Assembly (NCBI GenBank): GCA_965203055.1
Contig: OZ241863.1
Span: forward strand, 3,136,001-3,200,000
Direction of reading: 5' to 3'
Origin: Spirochaetia bacterium
GTDB taxonomy: Bacteria > Spirochaetota > Spirochaetia > SZUA-6 > Bin103
Length of the DNA stretch: 64,000 nucleotides
Shown here: one piece after another, positions 11,872 through 47,786 of the stretch
How positions within the stretch are numbered: position 1 is the stretch's first letter
How the letters are laid out: the number at the start of each line of letters is the position of its first letter
Notes under the pieces: generated by a model
Databases searched by the model: none
What the model was told of the DNA's origin: nothing
The model's input: only the letters and a program-made list of their open reading frames with translations
Made by a program: the position numbers and the translations under genes

Positions 11872-11893
11872 CCAGCTTTAGCTTCGTTGGCTG

Positions 11894-12654: not shown

Positions 12655-12660
12655 TATGTC

Positions 12661-22746: not shown

Positions 22747-22858
22747 CAGTGAGCACACGACATCGGACAGATGAGGCCCCTGTACGAGATGTAGGAAATA
22801 AGCAAAACCGAGCTGCAGCTAGCACTCGTGACGAGACGAGGATGATCCTGGACTAGCG

Positions 22859-23299: not shown

Positions 23300-23337
23300 T
23301 ACGATTCACAGGGCAGTCTCTTCGAGGAGTAATCGTG

Positions 23338-24150
23338 ATGACCAAAGATACGATAGAACGCGACTTCCGCGACAAGGTATCAAAACAGATCAGACTACAC
23401 CCGGAAGGATTGAACCGCTTCCGTGTGTTCAACCCGTTTCTGTTCGAGGATGGCGATCATTTGGTTGTCGTATTGAAGAAGGAACGAGGTAAATGGGTGC
23501 TTTCCGATGAGGCGCATACCTTCATGCACCTTACCTATAGTATAGAAGAAGAATTTCTTCTACGTGGCAAAATCCGTAAGTTTGTCTCCTCTGTACTGTC
23601 GACGTTAGATGTCGAGGACCGTGATGGAGAATTGGTATTATACGTCCCTGAAGAGCGCTACGGGGATGCTCTCTATTCCTTCATCCATACGTTATTATTC
23701 ATAATAGGACACTTCGAATATCTGTCACCTGGACCTATTCAATCTACGTTCATGGAGGACTTTCGATCCCTGTTGAGCGAAGCGGTACCGGAAGATAGCA
23801 GGTCTTTCGACTGGACCGATCCGGAACGTGATCCGTTTCGAAAATATACCGTAGATTGTCGGATCAGTGGCATGCGGCGGCCGCTATTTATTCATGCTCT
23901 TGCCAACGACGACCGGACCAGGGACGCCACGATAGCACTGCTCAAGTTCCAGGAGTGGGGAATCGAGTTCCGCGCTCTCGGCATCTTCGAGGATCAGGAA
24001 TCGATCAACCGGAGAGTTCTGGCACGCTACAGCGACATCTGCGAGAAGCAGTTTTCCAGCCTTTTGGAGAATCGAGCAGGAATCGTCCATTATCTGAGCG
24101 AGACCATCGGCGTGCCTGATGGCCGAGCCGGGGCTCGCGATGCCGATTGA
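23338..24150 (+). CDS. DUF1828-domain protein
   Basis: PFLFEDGDHLVVVL...WVLSDEAHT, STFMEDF, YTVDCRI; GAGGAG SD upstream; overlaps the pglX start. Confidence 0.75.
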   Translation: MTKDTIERDFRDKVSKQIRLHPEGLNRFRVFNPFLFEDGDHLVVVLKKERGKWVLSDEAHTFMHLTYSIEEEFLLRGKIRKFVSSVLSTLDVEDRDGELVLYVPEERYGDALYSFIHTLLFIIGHFEYLSPGPIQSTFMEDFRSLLSEAVPEDSRSFDWTDPERDPFRKYTVDCRISGMRRPLFIHALANDDRTRDATIALLKFQEWGIEFRALGIFEDQESINRRVLARYSDICEKQFSSLLENRAGIVHYLSETIGVPDGRAGARDAD

Positions 24151-27791: not shown

Positions 27792-30791
27792 ATGCCCGCC
27801 ATCCGCCCGCTGCCTCTCGACCAGAAGTGGAAGCAGCGACTCGACCTCACTGCGCGCACGGCGCCCGATCTCTACGAGGACGCCGCCGCCGTAACGGACA
27901 CCCCGCACGCCCGCGCGATACGCACTACCTTTCGGGACTTGCGCGCGTCGGCCGTGTTCTGCACGCACCGCGTGCCGGCGGTCGTCATCCTGTCGGTCGA
28001 AACCTACGACCGCCGCGCCGTGATCGACCTGCAGGCGAAGCTGTGGAACCAGGGCCTCGCCCACCTGCTCCTCGTCATCGCCGGCGACACGGTACGAGCC
28101 TTTTCGCTGGCGCGCATCCCCCGCCGGGGGAACGACGAAGACTTCGACGACCGCTGCCTCGCCTGGGAGTTGGATGCGGTCGCGCAAGCGCTCGAAGTCA
28201 ACAACCTCATCCATGGCGCCGAATCCGGCCGCCTCTGGGAGCATCCCAAGTTCCGATCGGAGGAACGGATCGACCGGGTGCTCCTGGACAACCTGAAGGA
28301 GTCGCATACGCGGCTACTGGACGGCATGTCCCCGGCCGCAGCTCAGGCGCTGCTCATCCAATCGATGTTCATCGCCTACCTGGAGGACCGGGAGATCGTC
28401 AGCCCCGACTATCTGCGGGCTGCCACCGGCGGCCGCGCGGCCAGCTTTCTGGACATCCTGAAGTCGGGAAGCGTGGCCGCGCTCGATCGCCTCTTCGAGC
28501 GGTTGCGAGACGATTTCAATGGCGACCTCTTCATCGCGCCCTGCTCCTTCGCGGCGGCCAATCGTCATCCGCCTCCCGAACCTCGTCATCTGGAGATTCT
28601 GTCCCGCTTCCGTTCCAGTGAACAGGAGATGGGCAGCGGGCAGTATCGCTTCTGGGGGTATGACTTCAAGTACATGCCCATCGAGTTGATAAGCGCCGTC
28701 TATGACCGGTTCCTGGGCGATCTAGGAACGGTGCGGCGTGGCCGCGGCGCCTACTACACGCCGCGATTCGTCGCGGACCTGGCGATTTCGCAGATCGCCG
28801 ACAGGCTGCCGAGCGAGAAGTTACTCGACCTGCGATTTCTGGACCCGGCGTGCGGGTCGGGTATATTTCTCGTGCGTTGCTTCCAGCTCCTCTGCGAGCA
28901 GCGCCGGCGCGCAACCGAACGCTCCCAAAGGATCCCTTGGGAATCCCTGCTTGCGATGCTTTCCAGACTGGAAGGATGGGACATCGACGAGGCCGCCGTA
29001 CGGGTGGCAGTGTTTTCGTTGTACGTAGCGCTGCTCGAAGAGGTGGAACCGCCCGACATCCAGGCGCTCATCGAGCGTGGCAATCTGTTGCCCGGGTTGT
29101 GGGAGCGCACCCTTCGCGCGCGTGATTTCTTCGCCGTTGATCCAGGTGATGAGAGCGCGCAGGCGGACGTCATCGTTGGCAACCCGCCATGGTCCAGCCG
29201 CGGCCAACCGGAGCGGCGCTCCATCGAGTGGTGCGCGACAGAAGGTCTCCCCATGCCGGGTCGGGAAGAAGCGTGGGCGTTCGTCTGGAAGTCGCTGCGG
29301 CACCTGCGGACGGGCGGCGTCATCGCCCTGCTCCTGCCATCCATGGGGTTCCTGCACAACCACGCCGGCAGCGCGGTCCGGGCGCGAAAGGACCTTCTGC
29401 GCGCCGCCCGGATCTTCCGCATCGTCAATCTTTCCGATCTGCGATTCCAGTTGTTCGATAGCGCGGTCCGGCCCGCCGCCCTGATCGTCTTCGGCCACGC
29501 CGATCCGAAAGAGCGTCCTTATTCGTTCGAGTACTTGACGCCGAAGGCGGACCTCAACCTGAAGAATCGCCGCTTGATCACGCTCAGCAGCGCTGACAAA
29601 CACTCGCTCACGTCGCCGATGGTGGAAGATGATCCATCGATCTTCAAGCGCTTCATGTGGATAAGCGATCCTGAAGAAAAACTGTTTCGCTATCTGTCCT
29701 CTCTGCCCCGCTTAGAAGAGCAAATTACGATCCTCAGTTATCAATGGACCGATCACTTGTCCTGTTCGAGTCACAAGGGATTTGAGGAGGTGTTGACTGG
29801 ACCGCGCGTTCTGGTTCTAAGAGGAGCGACCTATACGAAACAGATGCGCCTGCGTGCTACGTACGTCGAAGCCCGTGTTACGTTTCAGGACAGGATTCAG
29901 ACGATTGTCCATCTGTGCGGCGGAGAACCTCGTGCGAAGCTGTTGACTGCGCTTATCAACAGCAAGATTGCGGTATGGTTCATGTTTCATGGTGCGCCGT
30001 TATTCGGGGTCGAGCGCCCGGACGTCCAAGGAGATGAGTTGCGACTTCTTCCTTTTCCTCGGCCTGACGACCTGCCCGACAGGGCGCGGTCTCGAGCGGC
30101 CGCCGACCAGATGATTTCCGTCATCAACGAGTTGATGCGGGCGTCGGATTATCCGTTCGGCAGTATCGACGACGCGGTCTTCGCGGAGATCGATCGCCTG
30201 GCCTACGACTTCTTCGGTCTGACCGATGAGGAGATCATCCTGGTCGAGGACACGGTGGCGCACGTCATCCCCGCCGTCCATCCGGCTCGCAACAGCGTTC
30301 CCGAAATATGGCGTTCCCCTACACTGGAGGACCGGCGGCGCTATGCTCAGGCGCTGCTGCGCCGTATGAGCGACTGGTTCGAAGGTGACTACACGGTAGC
30401 GGCGAGGCTCGAAGCGCATAACGAGGACTTGGCGATGCTGCGTCTCACCCTGCAGCGGGAGCATGGGGCGGCTGAGTACCACGAGCTGGAATCATCACGG
30501 GTCAATCACGTTCTGGCGGACCTGGCCGCGCAGGTGGGCCGGCCCCTCGCCGGCAACTTTCAGTTGCTGCCCAATTTTCGCCTTGTCACGGGCGACCATC
30601 TCTATCTCGTCAAGCCGGCGCAGAAGCGGTTCTGGCTGCAATCGGCGGCCATCGCCGACGCCGACGCCATAGCCCTCGATCTGCACGACGCCTTGAAGGT
30701 AACGCCGCGTTCGGCGGAGGGATTCGTGAGTGACCATATTCGGGAGAGTGGCACCGCGATCGAGATACGTCATACGATGCTGTCGTTCTGA
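27792..30791 (+). CDS. Second N6-type DNA methyltransferase (type IIG-like RM protein)
   Basis: PIELISAVYDRFL, GAYYTP, DPACGSGIFL (motif I), GNPPW (motif IV), C-terminal KPAQKRFWL; starts 1 nt after the pglX stop. Confidence 0.88.
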   Translation: MPAIRPLPLDQKWKQRLDLTARTAPDLYEDAAAVTDTPHARAIRTTFRDLRASAVFCTHRVPAVVILSVETYDRRAVIDLQAKLWNQGLAHLLLVIAGDTVRAFSLARIPRRGNDEDFDDRCLAWELDAVAQALEVNNLIHGAESGRLWEHPKFRSEERIDRVLLDNLKESHTRLLDGMSPAAAQALLIQSMFIAYLEDREIVSPDYLRAATGGRAASFLDILKSGSVAALDRLFERLRDDFNGDLFIAPCSFAAANRHPPPEPRHLEILSRFRSSEQEMGSGQYRFWGYDFKYMPIELISAVYDRFLGDLGTVRRGRGAYYTPRFVADLAISQIADRLPSEKLLDLRFLDPACGSGIFLVRCFQLLCEQRRRATERSQRIPWESLLAMLSRLEGWDIDEAAVRVAVFSLYVALLEEVEPPDIQALIERGNLLPGLWERTLRARDFFAVDPGDESAQADVIVGNPPWSSRGQPERRSIEWCATEGLPMPGREEAWAFVWKSLRHLRTGGVIALLLPSMGFLHNHAGSAVRARKDLLRAARIFRIVNLSDLRFQLFDSAVRPAALIVFGHADPKERPYSFEYLTPKADLNLKNRRLITLSSADKHSLTSPMVEDDPSIFKRFMWISDPEEKLFRYLSSLPRLEEQITILSYQWTDHLSCSSHKGFEEVLTGPRVLVLRGATYTKQMRLRATYVEARVTFQDRIQTIVHLCGGEPRAKLLTALINSKIAVWFMFHGAPLFGVERPDVQGDELRLLPFPRPDDLPDRARSRAAADQMISVINELMRASDYPFGSIDDAVFAEIDRLAYDFFGLTDEEIILVEDTVAHVIPAVHPARNSVPEIWRSPTLEDRRRYAQALLRRMSDWFEGDYTVAARLEAHNEDLAMLRLTLQREHGAAEYHELESSRVNHVLADLAAQVGRPLAGNFQLLPNFRLVTGDHLYLVKPAQKRFWLQSAAIADADAIALDLHDALKVTPRSAEGFVSDHIRESGTAIEIRHTMLSF

Positions 30792-30822
30792 CGAATCTAT
30801 CTGTGGATGGAGATGATGAGCT

Positions 30823-32496
30823 ATGGCTGACGAGATGAATCAGATGGAGTTCGAGCGACTCGGAATCGGCAGCGTGCTGCGAAGGTATCGTCTCTTCGTT
30901 CCGCCGAACCAAAGGGAATACGCATGGACCGAGCGCGAGGTTTCGACGCTCTTCCGGGACTATGGACGAGCGCTCGAAGACGGGTCATCATATTTTCTTG
31001 GCACCATCGTTGCCATATCGAGACCGGATGGCATGCTCGAGGTGGTGGACGGACAACAGCGTCTTGCTACCACGTCGCTTCTCCTTGCTGCCATCCGGGA
31101 CTATCTGGACGACGACAGGATCTACCAGTCGATCAATAGCGACTTCCTTGTCAGTTTCGATTGGGCAAAGCGGGAGAGTGTCCCCAAGCTGCGGATGAAC
31201 GTCGACGACAACGAGCTGTTCGAGCACATCATCACCGGGTCTTCCTCTGACGCGCATCCGCAGACGACGAAGGAATCGCAGGTGCGCCTGCGAACTGCGT
31301 ACCGAATCGCCAGCGAGCACGTGGAGAAGATCGCGCAGCCGTGGGACCCGTGGGAACGCCGTAACATCTTTGGCGATTGGGTTTCGTTCGTCGAGCAGGG
31401 CGCCTTTGTCGTTCTCATCCGTATGTCGAACGACGCGCACGCCTACCGCATGTTCGAGACGCTCAACGACCGGGGTCTGCGTACTTCTCAAGCTGATCTG
31501 ATAAAGAACTTTCTGTTCAGCCGGTCGGTCGACCGGGTGCAGGAAATACGGCACCGATGGTACCACATGCGGGGCGCGCTTGAGACGCTGGGAGATGATG
31601 ACGTCACGGTGGATTTCTTGCGCGCGGCGGTCATCGTGACTCGCGGCCACACCCGGGAATCGCAAGTCTACGAATCGGTTCAGAACATCGCCAAGACCGA
31701 AAACACGGCGCTGGGATTCGCCTCTACGATCGAACGTCTGGCCCATACGTACGTGGCGACGTTCATCAGTTCACATGAGAAATGGAACGGTTGCCCGCCG
31801 GGTGTCAGGAGTGCGATAGAGGTGCTCGATCTGCTGGACGTACGGGCCATGCGACCGCTGCTGCTTGCCGCGGCCAGCAGGTTCTCTCACAGGGAATTGG
31901 CGGCCACCTTCCGGTTTGCCGTCGCGTTGAGCGTTCGGCTTGTCGTTGCCAATTCGCCGCGCGGCGCGTCGGCTGAGATGCCGCTGGGGGAGGTTGCGAA
32001 CCTTGTCCACAGGCGGGAAGTCGAGTCCACCGAGTCCCTGAAGAAGAAATTGAACGGGATCATACCTTCAGATGAAGAATTCCGAGCGGCCTTCGAGATT
32101 GCCCGGGTGCCGAGGGCGAGCCTGGCGCGGTACTGCCTCCGGTCGTTGGAGCGGGTGGCGAGCGATGAATCCGAGCCGTGGTACTTGCCCAACGAAGACT
32201 CGTCGATCATCAACCTGGAGCACATTCTCCCCAAGAAACAGGAGGGCAACTGGCCGCAGTTCAGCGACGACCACGCGGCGACGTACGTCAATCGCCTCGG
32301 CAATCAGGTGTTGCTGCGCGCCAGCGAAAACTCGGCGGTGGGAAACGCCGGATTCGCGGACAAGCGGGTCCTCTATAAGGAGTCGCCATACCGGTTGACG
32401 AAGATGATCGCGGAGGAAGCGGACTGGACACCGGAGCAGGTCGTCGCGCGGCAGAAGCGGCTTGCCGGCCTGGCGCTCGCCGCGTGGCCGATCTAG
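30823..32496 (+). CDS. DUF262 + DUF1524 protein (fused GmrSD-like modification-dependent nuclease)
   Basis: QREYAW, DGQQR, FETLNDRG; C-terminal HNH-type EHILP...NRLGNQVLL....NS. Confidence 0.92.
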   Translation: MADEMNQMEFERLGIGSVLRRYRLFVPPNQREYAWTEREVSTLFRDYGRALEDGSSYFLGTIVAISRPDGMLEVVDGQQRLATTSLLLAAIRDYLDDDRIYQSINSDFLVSFDWAKRESVPKLRMNVDDNELFEHIITGSSSDAHPQTTKESQVRLRTAYRIASEHVEKIAQPWDPWERRNIFGDWVSFVEQGAFVVLIRMSNDAHAYRMFETLNDRGLRTSQADLIKNFLFSRSVDRVQEIRHRWYHMRGALETLGDDDVTVDFLRAAVIVTRGHTRESQVYESVQNIAKTENTALGFASTIERLAHTYVATFISSHEKWNGCPPGVRSAIEVLDLLDVRAMRPLLLAAASRFSHRELAATFRFAVALSVRLVVANSPRGASAEMPLGEVANLVHRREVESTESLKKKLNGIIPSDEEFRAAFEIARVPRASLARYCLRSLERVASDESEPWYLPNEDSSIINLEHILPKKQEGNWPQFSDDHAATYVNRLGNQVLLRASENSAVGNAGFADKRVLYKESPYRLTKMIAEEADWTPEQVVARQKRLAGLALAAWPI

Positions 32497-32498
32497 CC

Positions 32499-32777
32499 TT
32501 ACCGCGTGAGCAGTTCTACTTGCGTCAGAAATTCGTCGGCGGCGCGGCATTGCACCAGCCGGTCACCGATATCGGCCAGTTGATCCGGGTCCGCGATGGG
32601 GGCAAGCAGAGCAGCCAAACGCTCCCTAGTCTCCGCCCCGAACCGCAACGCGGCCATACGGCAGAGCAGCGCTCGTTCGTGTTCGAGGCCCCGCTCGAGG
32701 CCTTGCTCAAGGCCCTGCTCGCGACCTTCCCGCATCCACTGCTCGGGCCACTCCTTCAAGCGTTCTTGCAGCGTCAT
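32499..32777 (-). CDS. Orphan C-terminal domain of an Rpn/YhgA-like protein (RpnS-like, ~92 aa)
   Basis: MTLQERLKEWPEQWMREGREQGLEQGLERGLEHERALLCRMAALRFG; strong SD GGAGGAGGT 4 nt before ATG 32777; open frame extends to 32891 but has no nuclease domain. Confidence 0.65.
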   Translation of the reverse strand: MTLQERLKEWPEQWMREGREQGLEQGLERGLEHERALLCRMAALRFGAETRERLAALLAPIADPDQLADIGDRLVQCRAADEFLTQVELLTR

Positions 32778-32908
32778 CCGTACCTCCTCCAGGCTGTTCA
32801 TCGCCGGCAGCTCCTCACCGGCCGGCTTGACCTGCTCCATCGAACTCGTCAGCCAGTCGACGTTCTCCGGCCCCGGCGGGCAGTATGGCATTATGTTGGT
32901 GCTGACGC

Positions 32909-35900
32909 ATGAGCACGATAGCTGACATCTTCGATCTACCGGAACGGGTCCACCAGGGGGACTTCGTGCTGCGGCTGGCCGAGGGAGTGGAGCGCGCCGA
33001 GCAGACGCTGCGCGATTACGTGGCGACCCCGCAGCTCGCGCAGTGCTTCGACGCCGCGCTGACGCTGATCGGCAGCGCGGTGGAGCAGGGCACCAGCAAG
33101 GGCGCCTACCTGCACGGCAGCTTCGGCAGCGGCAAGAGCCACTTCATGGCGGTGCTGACGCTGCTGCTGCAGGGCAATCCGCGGGCGCGCTCCATTCCCG
33201 AGCTGGCCGGCGCCGTGACCCGCGCCAACGCCTGGGCCGCGGACCGCCGGTTCCTGGTGGTGCCGTACCACCTGATCGGTGCGGCCAGCATGGAGGCCGC
33301 GCTGCTCGGCCACTATGCCGAACACGTGCGCGCGCTGCACCCGGACGCGCCCACCCCCGGCTTCTACCAGGCCGAACGCGTGTTCGCGGACGCCCGCCGC
33401 CTGCGCGCGAACATGGGCGATGCGGCGTTCTTCAAGGCGTTGAATGACGCGGTGCGGAGCGGTGCGGCGGACGCCGGCGGCGGCTGGGGCGCGCTGGGCA
33501 GCGGCTGGGACACGACCGGCTTCGATACCGCGCTGGCGGCGGCGCCGGGCGACCCCGAACGGGTGCGGCTGACCGGCGACCTGATCGACGCCTTCTTCGG
33601 GGCGATGCGGGCGTCCGGCGGCAGCGGCGGCGAGCGCTTCGCCGACCTGGACGAAGGCTTGGCGGTGATGGCGCAGCACGCGCAGGCGCTCGGCTACGAC
33701 GCCCTGATCCTGTTCCTGGACGAACTGATCCTGTGGCTGGCCAGCCACGCCGCGGACCCGGCCTTCGTCAGCCGCGAAGGGCAGAAGGTCGCCAAGCTGG
33801 TCGAGTCGGGGCGCGCCGACCGGCCGATCCCGATCGTCAGCTTCATCGCCCGGCAGCGCGACCTGCGCGAGCTGGTGGGCGAGCACCTGCCGGGCGCCGA
33901 GCAGCTCGGCTTCGCCGACGTGCTCAACTGGTGGGAAGCGCGGTTCGACCGGATCACCCTGGAAGACCGCAACCTGCCGGCCATCGCCGAGCGCCGCGTG
34001 CTGCGTCCGAAGAACGCCGCGGCGCGCGCCCAGCTCGAAGCGGCCTTCGAGCGGACCGCCCGCGTGCGCGAGGAAGTCCTCAACGTGCTGCTCACCCGCG
34101 CCGGCGACCGCCCCATGTTCCGGCAGCTCTATCCCTTCAGCCCCGCGCTGGTGCAGGCGTTGATCGCCGTGTCGTCGCTGCTGCAGCGCGAGCGCACCGC
34201 GCTCAAGATCATGCTGCAGCTCCTGGTGGAGCAGGGCGGCCGGCTGCAACTCGGCGACGTCATCCCGGTGGGCGACCTGTTCGACGTCGTGGCGCGCGGC
34301 GACGAGCCGTTCACGCAGGCGATGCGGGTGCGCTTCGACGACGCCCTGAACTTGTACCGCACCAAGCTCCGGCCGCTGCTGGAGTCCGAGCAGGGCGTTG
34401 TCGCCGCCGAGGTGGAGGCGGGGACCGCCCCGACGGCCGCCGCGGCGCGGTTCCGTTCCGACGACCGGTTGCTGAAGACGCTGCTGCTGGCGGCCATTGC
34501 CGAAGGGGTGGAAGCGTTGCGGGCGCTCACGCCGGCGCGCCTGGCGGCGCTCAACCACGGCACGGTGCGCTCGCCGATTTCGGGCATGGAGAGTCATGTC
34601 GTGCTGCGCAAGTGCCGGCGGTGGGCGGCGCAGGTGGGCGAGATCAAGGTCGCCGAGGACAGCGCCAATCCGGTCATCTCCTTGCAGATCGTCGGCGTGG
34701 ATACCGAAAGCATCCTGCAGAACGCGGCCGCGCTCGACAACGCCGGCAACCGCATCCGCACGGTGCGCCGGATCATCTGCGAAGCCCTCGGCACCGCGGC
34801 GGGTGAGCTGCACGACCGCCATGAGCTGACGTGGCGCGGCACGCGGCGTACCTGCGAAGTACTGTTCCGCAACGTCCGGGTGATGAAGGCCCCGGATTTG
34901 CGCAACGACCCCGGCTCGTGGCAGGTCGTGATCGACTGGCCGTTCGACGAACCGCAGTACACGCCGCTCGACGACCGCGCGCAGCTCCAGAACTTCCGCC
35001 GAACCGAAGAGCCGGCGGATACTCTGGTCTGGCTGCCGTCGTTCTTCTCCTCCGTTGGGCAGCGCGATCTGGGCCGGCTGGTGCTGCTCGAGGAGGTGCT
35101 CACCGGCAACCGCCTCAACGAATACGGCGCGCACCTGTCGCAGACCGACCGCGAGCAGGCGCGCGCGCTGCTCGCCAATCAACGCAATCAGATGCTGGTG
35201 CGCATCAACGATCACCTGCTCGCCGCCTATGGCATCGGCGACGTCGATAGCGGCGCCATCGATCACAGCCATGAGCTCAGCGAGCATTTCGAGTCCCTGA
35301 ATCCTCGGTGTCAGTTGCGCCCGCCGGTGGCCGGGGCGTTCCGCGGCGCGCTGGAGGAGCTCGTGGGCCAGGCGCTCGCGGCGCAGTATCCCGACCATCC
35401 CAAGTTCGGCGTCGAGGTCAAGCGGCCGGCCTTGCGGCGGGTGCTGGATGTGGTGGAGCGGGCCGTGGCCCACCCGGAGGAGCGGGTCGAGGTGCCGCCC
35501 CCGGTCCGCGAGGAGATGCACGGTATCGCCGTACCGTTGAAGCTTGGCGACATGGGCGAAACGCACTTCAAGCTCAGGCGGCACTGGTTCGACGAGCTGG
35601 ATCTCAAGCGCGCCCGGCACGGCCGCGGACCCATGACCGTTGGTATGGTGCGCGGCTGGATCGAGGCGCCCGAGCGGCGCGGGTTTCCGCGCGACGTCCA
35701 GAACCTGGTGATCGCGGTGTTCGCAGCGCTGGGCGGCTTCGACTTTGTCTACCGCGGCCGGCCGTTGTCCGGGGCCATCGACAAGCTCGACGACGCCTGC
35801 GAGCTGCGGGCGCACGAGCTGCCGTCCGCCGAGGAGTACCAGCGGGCCGTGCAGCGCGCCGGGGAGGTGTTCGACTACGCGACGGTGTCGCGGCTGTCCG

Positions 35901-38970: not shown

Positions 38971-39570
38971 ATGGACGCCGAGCGGTCTGACATTCAGATT
39001 ATCACCATACCGGATTGGGACTTGCACGGCGTCGTGCCGCCGATCCGTCTAGCTGCACCTACGTCGCGCGACCGTTCTCCGTATTCAGTTTCGCTCATCG
39101 ATTTCATACTACGTTTCGGAACGACCGCGGCTCGTCGCGAAATCATATCAGGATTTCTCAACTACCGCGATGCGTTGCGAGGGGTCCGCATTGTCAGAGG
39201 CTATCAATGGATCGACGGCAGCTTCATCGAGGATATTGAGACGATCGAGTACCGCGCTCCACGCGATATTGACATCGTTACTCTTTTTCATCTTCCTGAA
39301 GGGGATACTCAGGAGACTCTATTGGAACGTATGCCTCGGCTATTCCGAGCGGAAGATACGAAGATAGATTATCGTGTAGACGCCCATTACGTACAATTGG
39401 ACACTGACACCCCGGAGTCTCTCGTCGATCAAATTACCTACTGGTATAGCTTATGGTCACATCGAAGGAGTGGCCGATGGAAAGGATACCTGAAGATAGG
39501 TCTCTCTACTGTCGAAGATCATGCTGCCAGAGCTAGTCTTGATGTGATGACACAGGGAGGTGATACTTGA
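38971..39570 (+). CDS. DUF6932-like Pol-beta-type nucleotidyltransferase-fold protein
   Basis: QWIDGSFIE...PRDIDIVT, VDAHYV, YWYSLWSH.R.G.WKG; TATGAT at 38954-38959 upstream; lower GC. Confidence 0.7.
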   Translation: MDAERSDIQIITIPDWDLHGVVPPIRLAAPTSRDRSPYSVSLIDFILRFGTTAARREIISGFLNYRDALRGVRIVRGYQWIDGSFIEDIETIEYRAPRDIDIVTLFHLPEGDTQETLLERMPRLFRAEDTKIDYRVDAHYVQLDTDTPESLVDQITYWYSLWSHRRSGRWKGYLKIGLSTVEDHAARASLDVMTQGGDT

Positions 39571-40490
39571 ACGCGCGCGAATACCATCAGCTTCAGGCGG
39601 AGGTCAGTACACTGCAAAGCATGATTGAGCGACTTCCGTCCCATCACGCAATCGAGCGGCTTAGTCTGGAATCTCGCAAGAGAGAAGTGGAGGGTGAGCT
39701 TTCATCAATGCCGGCACCCGGGCGAACCCCTGCCCGGGTACGCTTGACGTTCCGTGGAAAACCTGTCGCGGTGTCTCACGGGGTTCGTGCTGACTTCGGT
39801 GCGGCGGCCGTCAAGGCATTTTCCCACGTGGTAGCCACCGTCGGGGCCAGTCAACGTACATTACTCCGATCTCGCGGCGTGGTTCCTAATCGAGAAGACT
39901 ATGATCTGCTGATTACCGATACCGCTCTGGGGTCTTTTGGTTTCGAGTTGGAGGAGCACCACAGGGACGAACTCCTTCCGAGTCAGTATTCCGTCGAGGC
40001 CGCTATCGACCAAACTAAGTCGATCCTTGAAGCCACAGTTGGAACTGACGAAGTATTGGCGAACGCTATTTCGGGAACCGATCCTCGAGCGCTTAGCGCC
40101 GTGCGGGCCTTTCTGAAACTGATGGCGGACCAGGAGGCGGTGTGTGCAATCGAATTCAAGGATGATGTTTTCAGGTTCTTGGACGTGGGGCAGATCAGGC
40201 AGAGTGAAAGCCGCCTGAGAGAGGAAAACATCCGCGAAGAGGAGCGGACAATATCAGGGACATTCGCGGGAGTGTTGCCGGTTGCTCGTACGTTTGAGTT
40301 TCGAGACGGTGATACGGGAGAAGTGATTTCGGGCCGCGTGGGCCCTTCCATCGGGGATGCGTCGGCGATAAACGAGCATATCAACAGACCATTGATGATC
40401 CGCGTTCATTCGACGCGAATAGGAGCATCGAAACCCCGTTACGTGCTTGTGGAATACGATCCACCACGGAAAGATGAATCAGCTCACTAA
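39567..40490 (+). CDS. Hypothetical protein, coupled partner of the DUF6932-like gene
   Basis: TTG start overlapping the upstream stop with GGAGGT SD; N-terminal helical hairpin, GSFGFELEE, beta-rich C-terminus. Confidence 0.75.
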   Translation: MNAREYHQLQAEVSTLQSMIERLPSHHAIERLSLESRKREVEGELSSMPAPGRTPARVRLTFRGKPVAVSHGVRADFGAAAVKAFSHVVATVGASQRTLLRSRGVVPNREDYDLLITDTALGSFGFELEEHHRDELLPSQYSVEAAIDQTKSILEATVGTDEVLANAISGTDPRALSAVRAFLKLMADQEAVCAIEFKDDVFRFLDVGQIRQSESRLREENIREEERTISGTFAGVLPVARTFEFRDGDTGEVISGRVGPSIGDASAINEHINRPLMIRVHSTRIGASKPRYVLVEYDPPRKDESAH

Positions 40491-40578
40491 TTCACTCGGC
40501 AGATTGACCGGTTTACGAACGAACCCAAGATGGTAAAATGCGTTTTCAGAAGACCGAGAAATGCTTCGGAGGTCCTCG

Positions 40579-41748
40579 GTGCTCGCTCGGATTGACCTTT
40601 GCTACTTCAAGTGCTTCACGATGTTGAAGCTGCCGCTGCGGCCGCTGACGCTGCTTTCCGGCACCAACGCTTCCGGCAAGTCGTCGGTGATCCAGGCGCT
40701 GGCGCTCCTGCATCAGACGATGCGCGAACACGAATGGACTTCGCATTTCATGCTGAACGGGAGCGCTGTTCATCTGGGTACAACCGCAGATGTAGTCGAC
40801 CAGGTTCAAGGGCACCGGGCGTTTGGAATCTCGCTTCAGGAAGCTGATGGGTCGTACGTTGAGTGGGAAGCCGAGGGCGAGCGTACCGACATGGCCATGG
40901 CCGTGAAGCGCGTCCGCGCCGAATTCGCCTCCGGCTACGACTGCGATGCCGATGAATCGGAGCCGCTTCGCTTTCTGCTGCCTCGCAACGCGCTTGAGTC
41001 CAGGAAGGCGATGTTGTTGGCGCACCGCCTGCGTCAACTCACCTACCTTGCCGCCGACAGGATGGGGCCGCGCGAGACCTATCCGTTGGAGGATCCGCGG
41101 CACGAGCCGGTCGTCGGTCCACAGGGACTACACACCGCCAGCGTTCTCCTTAACGGAAGCGAAACGCAGGTGCTGAAGAAGCTGGCCACCGAGAGGGTGG
41201 CGCCAACCTTGCGACGTCAGGTTGAAGCGCGCATGCGGGGGTTCTTTCCCGGCTGCGAATTCGTCGTCGAGAAGGTGCCCAAGACGAACGCCGTGACGTT
41301 GCGATTCCGCACGTCCGGGAGCGTGGAGTTCCATCGTCCCGTCCATGCCGGCTTCGGGTTGATGAGGGTCCTTCCGGTCGTCGTGGCGGCGTTGTCGGCT
41401 GAGGAGGACCACCTGCTGGTGATCGAGACCCCCGAGGTCCATCTCCACCCGGCCGGTCAGGCGCACATGGGAGAATTTCTGGCGGAAGTCGCCGCCGCCG
41501 GCGTGCAGGTCATTCTCGAGACGCATAGCGACCACGTGTTGAACGGCATCCGACGCGCGGTCAAACGGAATGCGCTGTCTCCCGACGCCGCGGCCCTTCA
41601 TTTCTTCCGGCCGCGCGATGAGAAGGATGAGAACGCGGCACAGGTGCAGAGTCCGGTTCTGGACCGCGACGGCAACATCGATAGTTGGCCGGATGGGTTC
41701 TTCGATCAGTTCGACAAGGATATGAACCACTTCGCCGGCTGGAGTTGA
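40579..41748 (+). CDS. ABC-type ATPase with C-terminal DUF3696
   Basis: GGAGGT SD then GTG 40579; GTNASGKS, HAGFG, LVIETPEVHLHP, LETHSDH, terminal WPDGFFDQ. Confidence 0.9.
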   Translation: MLARIDLCYFKCFTMLKLPLRPLTLLSGTNASGKSSVIQALALLHQTMREHEWTSHFMLNGSAVHLGTTADVVDQVQGHRAFGISLQEADGSYVEWEAEGERTDMAMAVKRVRAEFASGYDCDADESEPLRFLLPRNALESRKAMLLAHRLRQLTYLAADRMGPRETYPLEDPRHEPVVGPQGLHTASVLLNGSETQVLKKLATERVAPTLRRQVEARMRGFFPGCEFVVEKVPKTNAVTLRFRTSGSVEFHRPVHAGFGLMRVLPVVVAALSAEEDHLLVIETPEVHLHPAGQAHMGEFLAEVAAAGVQVILETHSDHVLNGIRRAVKRNALSPDAAALHFFRPRDEKDENAAQVQSPVLDRDGNIDSWPDGFFDQFDKDMNHFAGWS

Positions 41749-41749
41749 A

Positions 41750-41884
41750 GTGGACATCCTCGCCAACGATCTGTCGATTCACGGACAGCTCCACGACATA
41801 CGGTCATTTCGACGATGCTTCGGCGCCGGTTGCTCGCGGGCGGGCGGTGAGCGACAGCCAGCGACAGGCGGCAGGGCGGATTGA
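41750..41884 (+). pseudogene. Truncated N-terminus of the usual DUF3696 partner gene
   Basis: GTG 1 nt after the ATPase stop: VDILANDLSIHGQLHDIRSFR, then unrelated GC-rich sequence and a stop after 44 codons. Confidence 0.5.
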
Positions 41885-41919
41885 CGGCGCGGCGCCTGAG
41901 CCGGTAGGGTGGGCGCGGC

Positions 41920-42714
41920 ATGGGGACGTTCGAGGAGGGGTTCGGCGCCGTGGAGGCGGCTGCCGGGCGCACGGCCGCGGAGGCGGCGGCATTGGCGAAG
42001 GCGGCGAAGCAACTCCTCAAGGCCGCTCAGGACGGTAATATCGGCCAGCTCCGGCGCCAGAGCATCCGCCTCACCGAGCTGCTCTCCTCGGTCACCGGCC
42101 ACGTCGAACGGGCCTCCGCCAGTTGGCCGTTCGACGTCGAGGATGAACGCGCCTATCTGGAGCAGCGCTTCGGCGCCGAGCTGCGCGCCGAAGCGGACCG
42201 CATCGGCCTGAACGTCACGCCCCGTGACGAGCGGCTGGTCTGCTCGCCGTCGATCATCCGGGTCAGCCCTGCCGACCGCGCCGTGACGATTGACGGCCGC
42301 AAGCGGAGCGCGATCCGCCCGTCAAAGCTCGCCGCCGACCTGCATGCGATCCAGCAGGCCGGTCCGCGCGGCAATCCGCAGCGCTTCCTGGAGGCGCTGC
42401 ACAAGGCCTACCGCATCCTGGCCCCGGCGCCGGCGGACTCCTTGATCCAAGGCGGGCAGGTGGTCGCCCTGGCCAAGGTCTACGCCCTGCTCACCACCTT
42501 GCCGGGGAGCGGCCGGCAGTACTCCAGGACCGACTTCGCGCGCGACCTCTACGTGCTCGACAGCTCGGCCGTGGACACCACCCGCTCCGGCGGCGCCCGG
42601 GTGAGCTTCCTCCACTCCACCGCCGCGCGCTCCGGCAAGGGAGCGTTTTCGTTCGCCGATCGGGCCGGCAACCTGATCACCTACTCCAGCATCCGGTTTA
42701 CGGAGGTCGGTTGA
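41920..42714 (+). CDS. Hypothetical protein (N-terminal coiled coil, possible C-terminal winged helix), first gene of the DUF2791 triad
   Basis: Host-like codon usage; Ala/Lys helical N-terminus; IRPS, VYALLT.LPG...YSRTDFARDLY.LD; stop overlaps the next start. Confidence 0.8.
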   Translation: MGTFEEGFGAVEAAAGRTAAEAAALAKAAKQLLKAAQDGNIGQLRRQSIRLTELLSSVTGHVERASASWPFDVEDERAYLEQRFGAELRAEADRIGLNVTPRDERLVCSPSIIRVSPADRAVTIDGRKRSAIRPSKLAADLHAIQQAGPRGNPQRFLEALHKAYRILAPAPADSLIQGGQVVALAKVYALLTTLPGSGRQYSRTDFARDLYVLDSSAVDTTRSGGARVSFLHSTAARSGKGAFSFADRAGNLITYSSIRFTEVG

Positions 42715-43670
42715 TGCACGCCGCCGAGTGGCTCGATCACCTCGACCGGGAGTACCTGGCCACGTTCATCGCCGACGGCGGAGCCGCCGTCAAGTTCGTC
42801 GTGACCGGCGCCCAGGGCCGCGCGGACCTGATCCGGCGCCTGGCTCACACCGGTGAGGAGCGCGGCTATCTGGTCCTGACCGCCGACGCCGCCGAACAGC
42901 GGTTCCACATGCCGCAGGACCTGTTCTTCGCCATGGCCGCCCAGGTCGACTGGCGCCGCGCCGCGCGCCGCTTCATCATCCGGCTGGCGCAGGACGAAGG
43001 ATTTTCTGTCGACGGCGTAGACGCCGCTCAGGAAGGGGTGATCCGGTCCATCGCCGACCGCGCCGGGACCGGGATCGACGCCGGGTTTCTGTTCACCAGC
43101 CTGGCGCCGGCGCTGCAGCGCCGCCTGTACTTCGACCGGAACATGTCCAAGGACTTCCGCGTCGCCATGACCCATCTCTGTCTGCATGAGCGCTCCCTCG
43201 ACCAGCCGTATCAGGGGCAGGCGATCATCGACTGGCTGACCGGCAGGAACACCCGCATGTCCAACGTCAAGCAGTATTCCATCTTCACTCCCGTCAACCG
43301 CACCACGGCGCGCCACCTGCTGCGCTCGGCCTTCTACTGGTTCCGCAGCGCCGGCTATACCGGGACGATAGTGCTGCTGGACAACGAACGGGTGACCAGA
43401 CGCCTGCGGCCTGAGGATGGGTCGCGGTACTATACGCGAGCAATGACGATCGACCACTACGAATTGCTCCGCGAGTTCGTCGACGGCGCCGACCGCCTGC
43501 CGGCGACGTTGCTGGTCGTCTGTTCCGGCAGCGACTTCCTGGACCAGGAGGCGGACCGGCAGTCGCGCGGCGTCGGCATCTATCCCGCCTTGCAGACCAG
43601 GATCATCGATGACGTCCGCGACCGCACGCGGCAGAACCCGGCCGCCGCGCTGTGCCGGCTGGCCGGCTGA
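42714..43670 (+). CDS. DUF2791/BrxD-like P-loop-fold protein with degenerate Walker motifs
   Basis: WLDHLDREYL, GGAAVKFVV (no GKT/S), IDWLTG, GY.G.IVLLD, YELLREFVD, GIYPALQTRI. Confidence 0.75.
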   Translation: MHAAEWLDHLDREYLATFIADGGAAVKFVVTGAQGRADLIRRLAHTGEERGYLVLTADAAEQRFHMPQDLFFAMAAQVDWRRAARRFIIRLAQDEGFSVDGVDAAQEGVIRSIADRAGTGIDAGFLFTSLAPALQRRLYFDRNMSKDFRVAMTHLCLHERSLDQPYQGQAIIDWLTGRNTRMSNVKQYSIFTPVNRTTARHLLRSAFYWFRSAGYTGTIVLLDNERVTRRLRPEDGSRYYTRAMTIDHYELLREFVDGADRLPATLLVVCSGSDFLDQEADRQSRGVGIYPALQTRIIDDVRDRTRQNPAAALCRLAG

Positions 43671-43677
43671 GGCCGCG

Positions 43678-44964
43678 ATGCCGGAGAACCTGGACCGACT
43701 GGCCTGCCGCAGGGCGATAGAGGCGCTGCGCAACGGCGTGCCCAACCGGGAGGCGGTGCGCATTCTGGGCAGCACGCAGCCGCACGCCGAACGGCGCTTC
43801 CAGAAGCTCCTGCGGCGGGTGGAGGAGGGGAATGGCGCGGCGGCCGGCCGCGGGCTGCTGATCTCGGGCGACTTCGGCACCGGCAAGTCGCACCTGCTGG
43901 AGCATTTCGAGCACTTGGCCCTGGAGCGAAACTTCGTCTGCAGCCGGGTGGCGGTCAGCAAGGAGACGCCGTTCCATGACTTGGCCAGGATGTTCCGGTC
44001 GGCGGTCGATCACGGCACGGTCCCCGGCGGAAAGGTCGGTCTGATGGTGGACGAAATCGGCCACGGGTTGGACCCGGACTCCGACCGCTACGCGCGCTTC
44101 TTCCGCTGGGCGAACGACGACGACAACGGCCTGCACCGTATCTTTCCGGCCACGCTGATGGTGCACGAACGGTTGGGGGAACAGGACACGCTCAGCGCCA
44201 TCCGCTGGTTCTGGTCGGGCGACAAGATCGCGGTTGGCGAGGTCAAGAAGGGGCTGCGCCAGATCGGGCAACAGCGGTCGTATACCTTCCGCGCGCCGAA
44301 GCTGAAGGAGCTGCCGCCGCAGCGCCTGCGCTTCGTCCTGGAGATGGTCAAGGCGGCCGGTTATCACGGATGGGTCGTGCTGATCGACGAGCTGGAGCTG
44401 GTCGGGAGTTACAGCGTGCTGCAGCGCGCCCGCTCCTACGCCGAACTGACCCGCTGGATGGGCGAGAAGCGCGGCGATTATCCCGGACTGGTGGTCGTGG
44501 CGGCGATCACGGAAGACTTTGCCCAGGCGATCCTGGAGCAGAAGAAGGACCGCGTGAAGGTGCCGGAACGGCTGCGCGCGCGCGGTGACCTCGACACCTT
44601 GCGGTGGGCGGAGGCGGGCATGAAGTGGCTCGACTCGCGCCGCACGGCGCTCCACGAAGTGAAGCCGCAGGAGGTGGAGGCCGCGGTGGAGACGATCCGG
44701 CGCATCTACGGTACGGCGTACGACTGGCCGGCCCCACCGGCCGCCCCAACCCCGCCGGACGCCGCCGGCTATCAGAAGCGGATGCGCTACAAGGTCCGCG
44801 CGGCGATCACCACCTGGGACCTGCAGCGCCTGCATCCCGAGGCCCAGCCCGAGCTGGAGAGCGAGGAATACCATTCCTCCTACGCCGAAGATCCCGACGT
44901 GGCGGCCGAAACCAAAGACAACGACGACGCACCTCCCGCCCCGGCGGACCCTGCCGACTCCTGA
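43678..44964 (+). CDS. DUF2791/BrxD-like ATP-binding protein
   Basis: RRAIEALRNGVP, Walker A GDFGTGKS, SKETP, Walker B VLIDELE; acidic tail. Start at ATG 43678. Confidence 0.88.
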   Translation: MPENLDRLACRRAIEALRNGVPNREAVRILGSTQPHAERRFQKLLRRVEEGNGAAAGRGLLISGDFGTGKSHLLEHFEHLALERNFVCSRVAVSKETPFHDLARMFRSAVDHGTVPGGKVGLMVDEIGHGLDPDSDRYARFFRWANDDDNGLHRIFPATLMVHERLGEQDTLSAIRWFWSGDKIAVGEVKKGLRQIGQQRSYTFRAPKLKELPPQRLRFVLEMVKAAGYHGWVVLIDELELVGSYSVLQRARSYAELTRWMGEKRGDYPGLVVVAAITEDFAQAILEQKKDRVKVPERLRARGDLDTLRWAEAGMKWLDSRRTALHEVKPQEVEAAVETIRRIYGTAYDWPAPPAAPTPPDAAGYQKRMRYKVRAAITTWDLQRLHPEAQPELESEEYHSSYAEDPDVAAETKDNDDAPPAPADPADS

Positions 44965-45039
44965 CGCCCCCCTGATCGGCTGACCCGCCCGCACCGGCCG
45001 CGGGCCGGCCGGTCACGCGCGCGGCGGCCGCCGCGGTGG

Positions 45040-46242
45040 TCAGCGGGTATCGGCGAGCGCGGCGGTGGCGCCGCTGACGTCGAGCAGATAGAGCTGCCGC
45101 CCGCCGGCGTGGGCGGAATCGATGGTTACCAGCCGGGCGCCGGGATCGGAGCGCGGGTGCAGGTCGCAACGCAAGTCGTCCCGGTAGGCCGGCGGGGCGT
45201 GAAACCGGCCCAGTTCGACCCGCGCGCCGCTCGGCGCGTGGTACAGATATAGCTCCTGCATGCGGCTCCCTTCCCGCGGATAGCAGTCGTTGAGGATCCA
45301 GTCGCGGTCGCCCAGATAGGTGCAGTGGCCGTTCAGCGCCATCGCCTGCTTGCCGATCACCTCCACGTGATCGCTCCGGTCGCGGTACAGGTAGAACGCA
45401 TCCCGGTGGGAGGGCTGCCACGACCAGGCCAGGATCGTCTCGGGATCACGCCAGATGAAATGCGACATGTGGCCGTAGTCGTCCACCACGTGCAGGTCGG
45501 AGCCGTCCGCGGCCGCGGTGAACATGCGCGTGCGCATGCCGCGGCCGCCGGCGCGCCAGCGGTGCAGGAAGATGAAGCGCGTTCCGTCCGGGCTGAACAG
45601 CAGGTGGTTGAAGTAGTGCTTTGCCTGCGAGAAGTCACCGTGCGGCCAGGGCACCGCCGCGGCCTGGGCCACGGAGACGAGCTGGCGGACGGCGCCGGTG
45701 CGCAGGTCCACGCGGTAGATGCCCGACTCCTCGGGGGCCAACTGGTCGCGGCAGGGGTCGGGAATGCCCTCGTAGCCGTAGCCGGGGCGCATTTCCCCGA
45801 GGCGGCGGAAATCGGTGCCGATGGCCGAGCGGCCGTCCGGCGCCAGGGCGTAGACCGGCGCGGGCAGGGTGCGGCTGGCGCCGGTCGCAGTATCGGTGAT
45901 GCGCGCGGCGTAGCGGTCGCCGGCGCGTTCGTTCCAGATTACCTCGCTGGCCGATCCGGGGATCCACTGCAGCATGCACCCTTGCTGCCAGCACCAGGCG
46001 CTGGTCGCGCCGATGGTGCGCCACGCGTCGCCCCCTTCCAGATCGATCATGCCGATACGTATTTCGTCGTCCGGGCGCGGCGCGCGCTGCTCGAAGTCGA
46101 CGCCCATGGCCAGCGCGTAGCGCGAAGTGGGATCGAACTGCAGCTTGTCGTAGTAGCCGAACCAGTGGTAGCCGGGACCCTTGGTGATGGCCCGGATCGG
46201 AACCGGTGCGCCTTCCGGTCGGCGAAGGTCCTCCGCATTCAT
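45040..46242 (-). CDS. Beta-propeller protein (TolB/oligogalacturonate lyase-like)
   Basis: HWFGYYDK, AWCWQQGCMLQW, HYFNHLLFSPDG.RF.FLHRW, GHCTY, RCDLHPR; start at ATG 46242. Confidence 0.75.
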   Translation of the reverse strand: MNAEDLRRPEGAPVPIRAITKGPGYHWFGYYDKLQFDPTSRYALAMGVDFEQRAPRPDDEIRIGMIDLEGGDAWRTIGATSAWCWQQGCMLQWIPGSASEVIWNERAGDRYAARITDTATGASRTLPAPVYALAPDGRSAIGTDFRRLGEMRPGYGYEGIPDPCRDQLAPEESGIYRVDLRTGAVRQLVSVAQAAAVPWPHGDFSQAKHYFNHLLFSPDGTRFIFLHRWRAGGRGMRTRMFTAAADGSDLHVVDDYGHMSHFIWRDPETILAWSWQPSHRDAFYLYRDRSDHVEVIGKQAMALNGHCTYLGDRDWILNDCYPREGSRMQELYLYHAPSGARVELGRFHAPPAYRDDLRCDLHPRSDPGARLVTIDSAHAGGRQLYLLDVSGATAALADTR

Positions 46243-46374
46243 GCCGATCAGCCTGATGGCCGGCGCACCCCGCGTCAAGCGGCGGCCCTGCGGCCAGGTT
46301 GTTCGGGGCTGCCCGCCGTGCCCGCCCGCCGCCCGCCGTTTGACCGCGCGCCGTGCCGCAGGTAGCATGCCGCG

Positions 46375-46812
46375 GTGGCAGTGGCCGGTCGCCAGTTCGA
46401 CGTTGCGGGCAGCGACGTTCGCGGCAAGATTCGCTCCGCGAGCTGCCGGCCGCAGCCCTATCTGGAGTGCGTCCGCCGGTACAACGCCGGCGAGCACTGG
46501 CAGGCCCACGAGGTGCTGGAAGATCTGTGGCGCGCCACCGGCGAACCGGAGCGGCGGCGCTTCTATCAGGGAATCATTCAGTTGGCCGCGGCCTTCGTGC
46601 ACGCCGAGCGCGGCAACCTGCGCGGGGTGCAGCGCCTGTTGGCCAAGGCGGACGCCAAGTTGGAAGGCGTATCGTCCCCCTGCCTGGGTCTCGACGTCGC
46701 GGCCTTGCGGCGCGCCATGGCCGCGGCCGGACGCGAGGCGCGGGCCGCGGCGGCAGACCCGCGGCGCGCGTTCGACTGGCGCTGCAAGCCGCGGCTGCTC
46801 CTGCGCCCCTGA
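46375..46812 (+). CDS. DUF309 family protein
   Basis: YNAGEHWQAHEVLEDLW...FYQGIIQLAAAFVH..RGN; start uncertain. Confidence 0.85.
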   Translation: MAVAGRQFDVAGSDVRGKIRSASCRPQPYLECVRRYNAGEHWQAHEVLEDLWRATGEPERRRFYQGIIQLAAAFVHAERGNLRGVQRLLAKADAKLEGVSSPCLGLDVAALRRAMAAAGREARAAAADPRRAFDWRCKPRLLLRP

Positions 46813-46829: not shown

Positions 46830-47786
46830 GTGATCGAACCGACGCTGGATGAGGTGCGCGCCGCAGCGCTGCGCATCGCGCCCTACGTGCACCGCACGCC
46901 GGTGTTTACCAGCTCCTTTCTGGATGCGGCGAGCGGCGCCCGGCTGTTCTTCAAGTGCGAGAACCTGCAGAAGGTTGGCGCATTCAAGATGCGCGGCGCG
47001 GCCAACTTCGTGCTGCGGCTCTCCCCGGCCGAGGCCGCGCGCGGCGTCGTGACGCACTCCTCCGGCAACCACGGCCAGGCGGTGGCGGCGGCGGCGCGGG
47101 CGCGCGGTGTGGCTGCGACCGTGGTCATGCCGCGCAGCTCGGCGGCGGTCAAACGGGCGGCCGTGGCCGGCTATGGGGCGCGGGTAGTGCTCTGCGCCGA
47201 CGGCGACCGGGCGCGCGCCGCGGCCGCGCAACGGATCGTGGAACGGGAGGGCGCCATCCTCATCCATCCCTACGGCCATCCCGACATCGTCGCGGGTCAG
47301 GGCACCCTGGCGCTGGAGCTCCTGGAGCAGGCCGCGCACCTGGACGCGGTGGTGGCGCCGGTCGGCGGCGGCGGCTGCCTGAGCGGGATCGGGCTGGCGG
47401 TACGCGGATTGCGCCCGCAGGCAGCGCTGTTCGGGGCCGAGCCGGAGCGCGCTGACGACGCCGCGCGCTCCCTGGCCGCCGGCCGCATCCTGCCGAGCGT
47501 GCAGCCGGACACGGTAGCCGACGGACTGCGCACCGCGCTGGCGCCGCTCACCTTCGCGCTCCTGCGCGCGCACGGCGTCCGGATTCTGACCGTCTCGGAG
47601 GAGCAGATCGTCGCCGCCATGCGCACCATCTGGATGCGCCTGAAGCTGGTGGTCGAGCCGTCCGCGGCGGCCGCCCTGGCGGCGGTGCTGGCCCACGGCG
47701 CGCTGTTCCGCGGCCGGCGCGTCGGGGTGGTGCTGACCGGCGGCAACGTCGACCTGGAGCGCCTGCCGTGGACCGCGCCCGCCTAG
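46830..47786 (+). CDS. PLP-dependent Ser/Thr dehydratase or serine racemase family protein
   Basis: FKCENLQKVGAFKMRGA, SSGNHGQ, PVGGGG, VEPS, TGGNVD; GTG start 46830. Confidence 0.92.
   Translation: MIEPTLDEVRAAALRIAPYVHRTPVFTSSFLDAASGARLFFKCENLQKVGAFKMRGAANFVLRLSPAEAARGVVTHSSGNHGQAVAAAARARGVAATVVMPRSSAAVKRAAVAGYGARVVLCADGDRARAAAAQRIVEREGAILIHPYGHPDIVAGQGTLALELLEQAAHLDAVVAPVGGGGCLSGIGLAVRGLRPQAALFGAEPERADDAARSLAAGRILPSVQPDTVADGLRTALAPLTFALLRAHGVRILTVSEEQIVAAMRTIWMRLKLVVEPSAAAALAAVLAHGALFRGRRVGVVLTGGNVDLERLPWTAPA

Follow-up and report, generated by a model that had tools for sequence, protein, structure and literature searches.

BrxD-type ATPases belong to the components of bacteriophage exclusion (BREX) type 2 and of Shango that are least understood. 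PMC12839542 describes BrxD as an AAA+ ATPase of the origin recognition complex (ORC)/Cdc6 type, which forms a dyad with BrxHI and is proposed to be a helicase loader. The ORC/Cdc6-clade features given there for BrxD are an HEH insert, an arginine finger and a C-terminal helical bundle. Shango, as outlined in bioRxiv 10.1101/2022.11.11.516204, combines a TerB protein, an ATPase and a helicase. The stretch studied here, called the window, is 64,000 nucleotides of DNA from a Spirochaetia bacterium (G000:C1:3136001-3200000). The genome G000 is a single 4.56-Mb contig (C1) with a GC content of ~68%. We analysed a triad of genes, g1, g2 and g3, at window positions 41920-44964 (+), in which g2 and g3 share a protein family with BrxD. 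We consider it probable that this triad is a form, lacking the motor, of an unnamed four-gene cassette that is widespread, is independent of BREX and probably serves as a DNA-surveillance or anti-phage module.

The g1 survey used one genome per species and found a relative of g1 in 232 genomes. The best 80 loci were taken with 10-kb flanks (loci are labelled L, genomes G). They came from about ten phyla, including Spirochaetota, Chloroflexota, Binatota, Latescibacterota, Actinomycetota, Pseudomonadota, Nitrospirota, Acidobacteriota and Thermodesulfobacteriota. The gene g2 directly followed g1 in 80/80 loci, and g3 was present in 79/80. The remaining locus, L079, is cut by a contig end, so that it has no g3 and its helicase is not judgeable. 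This recurrence of the genes in the same order shows that the linkage of the triad is not due to chance. The triad proteins were 40-55% identical across phyla.

When the flanking open reading frames (ORFs) were clustered, a further conserved gene, the fourth, emerged immediately downstream of g3. It encodes a SWI2/SNF2 helicase of ~700 aa (PF00176 at ~1e-46, plus Helicase_C), whose best PADLOC models were ZorD and DpdE. The N-terminal region of this helicase, ~250 aa, had no Pfam match. In many Dehalococcoidia, part of this region is a separate protein of 179 aa, for which the ESM Atlas gave only unnamed 'hypothetical' clusters. The cognate helicase was detected by tblastn in 64/80 loci and its N-terminal domain in 62/80. 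It was absent from L006-L011, the Spirochaetota loci nearest to the window, and from L015, L020, L028, L043, L050, L056, L071, L074 and L078. The sole SNF2 gene of L078 is unrelated and lies on the other strand. The normal unit therefore has four genes, which encode the orphan protein g1, two BrxD-type ATPases (one dead, one live) and an SNF2 helicase that carries an additional domain at its N-terminus. An earlier note on this DNA had proposed a three-gene module whose homologues would stay together. The conserved order agrees with that proposal, and the count has to be corrected to four.

The window lacks the motor. No helicase remnant was found in it by tblastn (best E 0.085), and the cognate helicase was found neither elsewhere in the genome nor in five relatives that carry the triad. 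The generic SNF2 genes of the genome were considered as the cognate partner and rejected, since they share 34-38% identity over the helicase core only and have no N-terminal domain. The five relatives likewise had only such generic SNF2 genes. The downstream neighbour of g3 is convergent, has a coding-like GC content at third codon positions (GC3) of 0.86 and matches nothing in Pfam or PADLOC. In tblastx comparisons of the window with L006-L011, similarity was essentially confined to about 41896..44970. Two matches beyond the triad were weak and unrelated (L006 in pglZ, and L011 at 47294-47755). The similarity ends at the borders of the triad, which is therefore a self-contained insert.

Purifying selection acts on the three genes even though the helicase is absent. 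The ratios of nonsynonymous to synonymous substitution rates (dN/dS) against L007, L006 and L008, which belong to the helicase-less clade, were 0.30-0.37 for g1, 0.14-0.29 for g2 and 0.22-0.30 for g3. A FastTree phylogeny of g3 with 80 rows (the window and 79 loci, without L079) placed the window in a Spirochaetota clade of seven rows with support 100, which is entirely helicase-less. Genomes of Binatia, Terriglobia and Nitrospira together form a second helicase-less clade (support 98). On this tree, at least five changes in helicase presence are required, four of which are forced by well-supported branches, and 0/500 label shuffles gave as low a number. We claim no direction for these changes, because the tree is a quick one and midpoint-rooted.

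The triad consists of three ORFs on the same strand (Table 1). The GC3 values of g1, g2 and g3 are 0.89-0.90 and match those of PglY, PglZ and other real genes of the genome. The genes are coding and coupled. The ATG at 42714 is the likelier start of g2, because its homologues begin at matching MH residues. The promoter scan gave no promoter-like sites, and terminator-like sites were not above chance. The repeat scan gave nothing notable, and the window has no tRNA genes. DNA near-identical to window positions 41800-45000 (at least half of the sampled words) was seen in 13 public runs, several of them labelled as sponge or marine metagenomes (X4, X5, X10-X13); no RNA-type run is on record among the 13.

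The family libraries searched were Pfam, PADLOC 2.0 and NCBIfam. The Pfam family PF10923 (BrxC_BrxD, formerly DUF2791; curated gathering cut-off 22.2 bits) matched both g3 (1.3e-22, 80.7 bits) and g2 (1.4e-11, 44.4 bits), and AAA_16 also matched g3. BrxD was the best PADLOC model for both proteins (g3 1.9e-17, g2 1.4e-10), and SngB was weaker. The match of g3 to SngB (7.3e-7) covers residues 45-100 only. Scores against the NCBIfam BREX_BrxD equivalog NF033438 were 64.5 bits for g3 and 37.6 bits for g2, below its cut-off of 350 bits. The Walker A motif GDFGTGKS and the Walker B motif VLIDELE of g3 conform to the patterns GxxxxGK[ST] and hhhhDE, and G[DE]FGxGKS and hhhDE[IL]E are kept almost without exception in its 80 homologues. 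Sequence-profile searches of the PDB gave nothing below E 0.02 for g1, g2 or g3, with TnsC (0.027) and BrxC (0.052) as weak P-loop matches.

The gene g2 encodes the second, degenerate copy. It aligned with g3 at 24% identity (E 5e-4) and carries the motifs GGAAVKFVV, IDWLTG, LLREFVD, IYPALQTRI and LLDN. Its GGAAVKFVV followed by TGAQGR aligns with GGAALRFVIGEYGSGKT of the canonical PF10923 protein of the genome, and the P-loop itself is therefore gone. Among 80 homologues of g2 the GG..[VI]KF strand is kept and the P-loop position is freely variable. The Walker B position reads LLD[N/D/S] instead of DE, so that the aspartate is kept and the catalytic glutamate replaced. The constraint on g2 is strong, with 34 invariant columns in 27 sequences, including WLTG and an E..R pair. 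Judged by its sequence, g2 is a dead paralogue of a BrxD-type ATPase. E251/R254 of g2 aligns with E256/R259 of g3, and the arginine of this pair is a putative finger for the active site of g3.

No significant family match was found for g1 in the three libraries. The nearest Pfam match was sub-threshold (Gag_p30, E 0.016, 15.2 bits against a cut-off of 27.4), and TerB, TerB_N and TerB_C of Pfam did not match. The family has 141 close homologues. Clustered at 50% identity, it comprises 865 clusters at E<=1e-3, and 635 of these reach <=1e-10. Nearly all its members are stand-alone proteins of 250-290 aa. The homologue lists and cluster look-up name them only 'hypothetical protein', and the ESM Atlas gave only unnamed 'hypothetical' clusters. 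The AlphaFold2 model of g1 (mean predicted local distance difference test score, pLDDT, 87.5; predicted template modelling score 0.78) shows a long helical hairpin at 4-67, two more helices, a five-strand beta unit at 100-129 and a helical/beta C-terminal part. Foldseek gave no match to the whole model at E<=1e-3, and VIA gave unspecific coiled-coil matches to residues 1-86 (Z<=9.6). Residues 96-264 modelled alone had a pLDDT of 82.2. For the last ~110 residues, nearly all of the 50 best VIA rows were winged-helix domains, all weak and none at Z>=8, and Foldseek found nothing for the C-terminal domain alone at E<=1e-3. The top matches were RctB (Z 5.7, root mean square deviation 3.1, 83 residues), ESCRT-II (5.4) and the C-terminal winged-helix domain of kleisin (5.3), followed by ORC, forkhead (FOX), Lhr and Hel308. 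The invariant DFARDLY motif sits in the third helix of this winged-helix-like unit. The models weakly suggest that g1 may be an adaptor that combines a coiled coil with a winged-helix-like head for binding DNA or an ATPase.

The description of the three genes in the earlier note agrees with these results. It had read them as tightly linked, with a stop/start overlap and a 7-nt gap, and the ORFs and the TGATG junction bear this out. Every motif that it quoted is present in g2 and g3. Its assignments of an intact DUF2791/BrxD-like ATPase to g3 and of a degenerate one without a P-loop to g2 were confirmed by the PF10923 matches and the alignments, and its view of g1 as a coiled-coil protein with no recognisable domain fits the family searches and the predicted hairpin. 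It had not recognised the triad as a named system, and apart from the shared PF10923 domain no match to a named system was found in Pfam, NCBIfam or PADLOC 2.0.

The distribution of g1 is patchy. Among 41 related genomes, 14 carry it: 8/10 genomes of the window's genus, 5/13 of a sister genus and 0/17 of the other families of the order. In a Dehalococcoidia order around one carrier, 12/101 genomes have g1. The g1 of the window is 84% and 78% identical to copies of the sister genus, compared with 52-60% to those of its own genus. In two own-genus loci, L008 and L010, the triad directly follows a multihaem cytochrome gene. The same cytochrome gene lies at C1:4544511-4547426 in the window's genome (88% identity), and neither a triad nor a remnant was found in the 1.5 kb checked after it. 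Because its g1 is closer to the sister-genus copies and the usual site holds no triad, the triad of the window looks, from sequence comparison, like a xenologue that was acquired horizontally and came to lie in a defence island.

The identity and the modularity of the triad are well supported, and its function we can only infer. The cassette would move between bacterial phyla as a unit and would have landed here right after a phage growth limitation (Pgl) system. In the proposed mechanism, g3 would bind and hydrolyse ATP. The protein g2, with no P-loop, many invariant surface residues and the E..R motif, may pair with g3 in an asymmetric, ORC/Cdc6-like assembly, and g1 may use its coiled coil and its winged-helix-like domain to connect the two ATPases with DNA or with a partner. 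Where the SNF2 motor is encoded next door, as in most genomes, the assembly would load or activate it on DNA that is foreign or abnormal, similar to what is proposed for BrxD-BrxHI. Since the motor is gone in cis, yet the three genes are maintained, the triad of this clade would most likely work as an ATP-driven DNA-binding sensor or switch, alone or with a partner encoded elsewhere. We also put forward a more speculative and rather unlikely form of this idea. The triad might be a self-sufficient, transferable ATP-driven sensor or loader for different effectors, with SNF2 in cis or, in helicase-less lineages, a partner in trans, conceivably a neighbouring defence system of the island. It would then be a shared 'front end' of bacterial immunity, built like an origin-recognition complex in miniature in which one subunit is live and the other dead.

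The earlier note had offered two readings, a stand-alone defence system or a replacement for brxD-brxHI that defines a BREX type 2 subtype. The position of the triad invites the latter, in which it would be an accessory of the Pgl system. It follows pglZ at a distance of 3 kb on the same strand, the Pgl locus of the window has no brxD-brxHI, g2 and g3 share PF10923 with BrxD, and in G012 about 41 kb separate the triad from pglZ. Against this, three other genes (the DUF6932 pair and the NsnB-like ATPase) intervene between pglZ and the triad, g3 falls far below the BrxD equivalog cut-off, and the similarity to the closest relatives stops at the triad borders. None of the 80 loci has pglW, pglX, pglY or pglZ within 10 kb of the triad. 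The PglZ of the window occurs in 5/41 related genomes. G011 has a PglZ that is 88% identical but lacks both the triad and any PF10923 gene, the two systems are on different contigs in G015, and they are 600 kb apart in G010. In the four relatives with this Pgl, no g2-, g3- or SngB-like gene or other PF10923 gene was found beside pglZ, so that the Pgl of this lineage normally lacks brxD-brxHI, with or without the triad. According to PMC12839542, 88% of 1309 type 2 taxa have BrxD and 91% have BrxHI, and such gaps are therefore known. The triad is independent of Pgl, and its adjacency here is incidental. The reading as a BREX type 2 accessory is thus largely refuted and extremely improbable, and the stand-alone reading fits all the evidence.

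The reading of the triad as a stand-alone surveillance or anti-phage module has to be weighed against two further explanations and against several observations. The triad might be a decaying, non-functional remnant left after loss of the SNF2 effector. The window has neither a copy nor a remnant of the motor with its N-terminal domain, which is the one obvious effector of the cassette, and the helicase would have been lost several times on the tree. Decay is nevertheless quite unlikely, because the three frames are intact, g3 keeps its catalytic motifs, dN/dS is 0.14-0.37 against three helicase-less relatives, and the helicase-less state is common to the whole Spirochaetota clade (13 further relatives) and to a second clade of three phyla. 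A serious rival, though we hold it somewhat doubtful, is a cellular role of the motor-less form at least in this clade, such as ATP-dependent DNA maintenance, repair or regulation by a co-opted immune-type machine. Several results weigh on its side or against a defence role. The triad is common in its own genus and follows the same cytochrome in both scanned loci, more like a resident set than a mobile defence gene. Its identity across phyla is unusually high for defence genes. The triad itself holds no nuclease or motor as an effector. No match to g1 was found by tblastn in plasmid and phage collections, and the best structural match of g1 lies under the level of Z ~8 from which VIA states that its matches can be trusted. 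The domain scan of the flanks covered 106 proteins in 27 loci (20 of 126 selected proteins, from five loci, were dropped on a size limit), and most were housekeeping, such as cytochromes, PolA, FtsK, BipA and a tRNA synthetase. About 15 flanking proteins in 12 loci had defence, toxin-antitoxin or mobile-element domains (TIR, PIN, HicB, NYN, Fic, Uma2, Schlafen, DUF4143, DUF3800, HTH-M78, NsnB-like ATPase, UvrD, MTase-HNH and transposase), a modest association; as raw counts, they are only suggestive. Specific PADLOC models matched at 1e-15 in the flanks of 5 loci only, and the other matches were generic. A purely cellular role fits poorly with the patchy distribution (12/101 genomes in one order and none of 17 in other families of the window's order), with clear signs of transfer between phyla, and with a window copy that looks like a xenologue in a defence island and is not at the usual site of the genus. 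Among characterised systems, those closest to the triad are the BrxD-BrxHI dyad and Shango, both immune modules.

The triad of the window stands in a defence island made up of PglW, PglX, a type IIG restriction-modification enzyme, GmrSD, PglY, PglZ, the DUF6932 pair and the NsnB-like ATPase (Table 1). The Pgl operon is split by other defence genes between pglX and pglY. The region between pglW and pglX looks like the debris of another inserted element. The DUF6932 pair has a GC3 of 0.51-0.57, compared with ~0.9 in its neighbours, and looks like a recent foreign insert right after pglZ. The type IIG enzyme, GmrSD, the DUF6932 protein and its 307-aa neighbour had no match in the 80 loci. The NsnB-like ATPase just upstream of the triad is a lone gene with no obvious Menshen partners. 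NsnB-like genes were also seen 2-9 kb from the triad in 4/80 other loci (L039, L048, L054 and L070; partial match), upstream in three of them and on either strand. The Pgl locus of G015 (L101, G015:C1:890000-902500) has the order ...pglZ-pglW-pglX on one strand, unlike the order in the window.

Table 1. Features of the window at and around the triad.
Feature	Position	Strand	Description
g1	41920..42714	+	264 aa, unnamed family; N-terminal helical hairpin, small beta unit and C-terminal winged-helix-like domain with invariant DFARDLY helix
g1/g2 junction	42702..42716	+	GGAGG ribosome-binding site (42702-06), then TGATG, in which the g1 TGA (42712-14) overlaps the g2 ATG (42714-16)
g2	42714..43670	+	318 aa (42711..43670 in the ORF list, 319 aa if TTG 42711 is the start); P-loop-less BrxD-type paralogue
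g2-g3 spacer	43671..43677	+	7 nt; GAGG straddles the g2 stop codon
g3	43678..44964	+	428 aa, intact BrxD-type (PF10923) ATPase
Downstream neighbour of g3	45040..46602	-	520 aa
PglW, PglX, PglY/BrxC, PglZ			PglW with NERD and two kinase domains; order pglW...pglX...pglY-pglZ
Region between pglW and pglX	21716-24150		Short AAA_15-type ATPase fragment of 241 aa (N-terminal part only), DUF1828 protein and stretch of low GC content (0.52 at 22-24 kb)
Insertion between pglX and pglY	27792-32912	+	Type IIG restriction-modification enzyme (999 aa), GmrSD/HEC-06 type IV enzyme (557 aa), 142-aa ORF
DUF6932 pair	38971-40490	+	DUF6932 protein (Pfam 2.9e-29; PADLOC PDC-M63A 8.6e-12) and 307-aa protein without family match, 4-nt overlap
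NsnB-like ATPase	40561-41748	+	PADLOC NsnB 3.2e-100; AAA_15/AAA_21 and DUF3696

A live and a dead copy together with an adaptor, which persist with or without the helicase, separate a 'loader/sensor' half from a 'motor' half. Should the full cassette prove to protect against phages, it would be a new system. It occurs mostly in uncultured lineages that defence screens have not sampled, namely Dehalococcoidia, Binatia, Latescibacterota and sponge-associated Spirochaetota. The locus also calls for caution in annotation, as a PF10923 gene near pglZ is not necessarily brxD.

No published description of the cassette was found in a literature search of partial coverage that excluded supplements. Pairs of intact and degenerate Orc/Cdc6-type ATPases, side by side in anti-invader neighbourhoods, are reported in PMC10853773. 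The pair described there differs in keeping Walker A and losing Walker B and in being linked to a KAP NTPase; it belongs to a different family and has different partners. A further adjacent PF10923 pair (134 and 42 bits) was seen in a relative from the window's genus, at G010:C1:4431901-4434260 (-), besides the triad and the canonical copy of that genome. Tandem BrxD-type pairs may be a wider theme.

Shango (SngA, SngB and SngC) shares with the cassette the plan of an accessory protein, a DUF2791-type ATPase and a superfamily 2 (SF2) helicase, and g3 has a match to SngB, over residues 45-100 only and weaker than that to BrxD. In contrast to Shango, g1 has no TerB domain, the cassette has an extra dead ATPase, and its helicase is of the SNF2 and not the DEAD type and is absent here. 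The same genome has a Shango-like trio at C1:1.04 Mb (L005, G000:C1:1030001-1050000, 7677-15574 (-)), in which a 1451-aa TM2/TerB_N/TerB/TerB_C protein is joined by a DEAD/Helicase_C helicase and by a canonical PF10923 ATPase that scores 493 bits.

The BrxD-BrxHI dyad resembles the cassette in having a PF10923 ATPase with intact Walker A and B motifs, represented by g3, which in the full cassette is followed directly by an SF2 helicase. The cassette differs from it in having an orphan protein and a dead paralogue beside the live one, in the low score of g3 against the BrxD equivalog, and in its lack of linkage to pglWXYZ. Its helicase is of the SWI2/SNF2 type, whereas BrxHI is described as Ski2/Lhr-like, and the window has none. 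Our best reading from these comparisons is that the cassette parallels the BrxD-BrxHI dyad and Shango and would belong with the modules that combine a PF10923 ATPase and an SF2 helicase.

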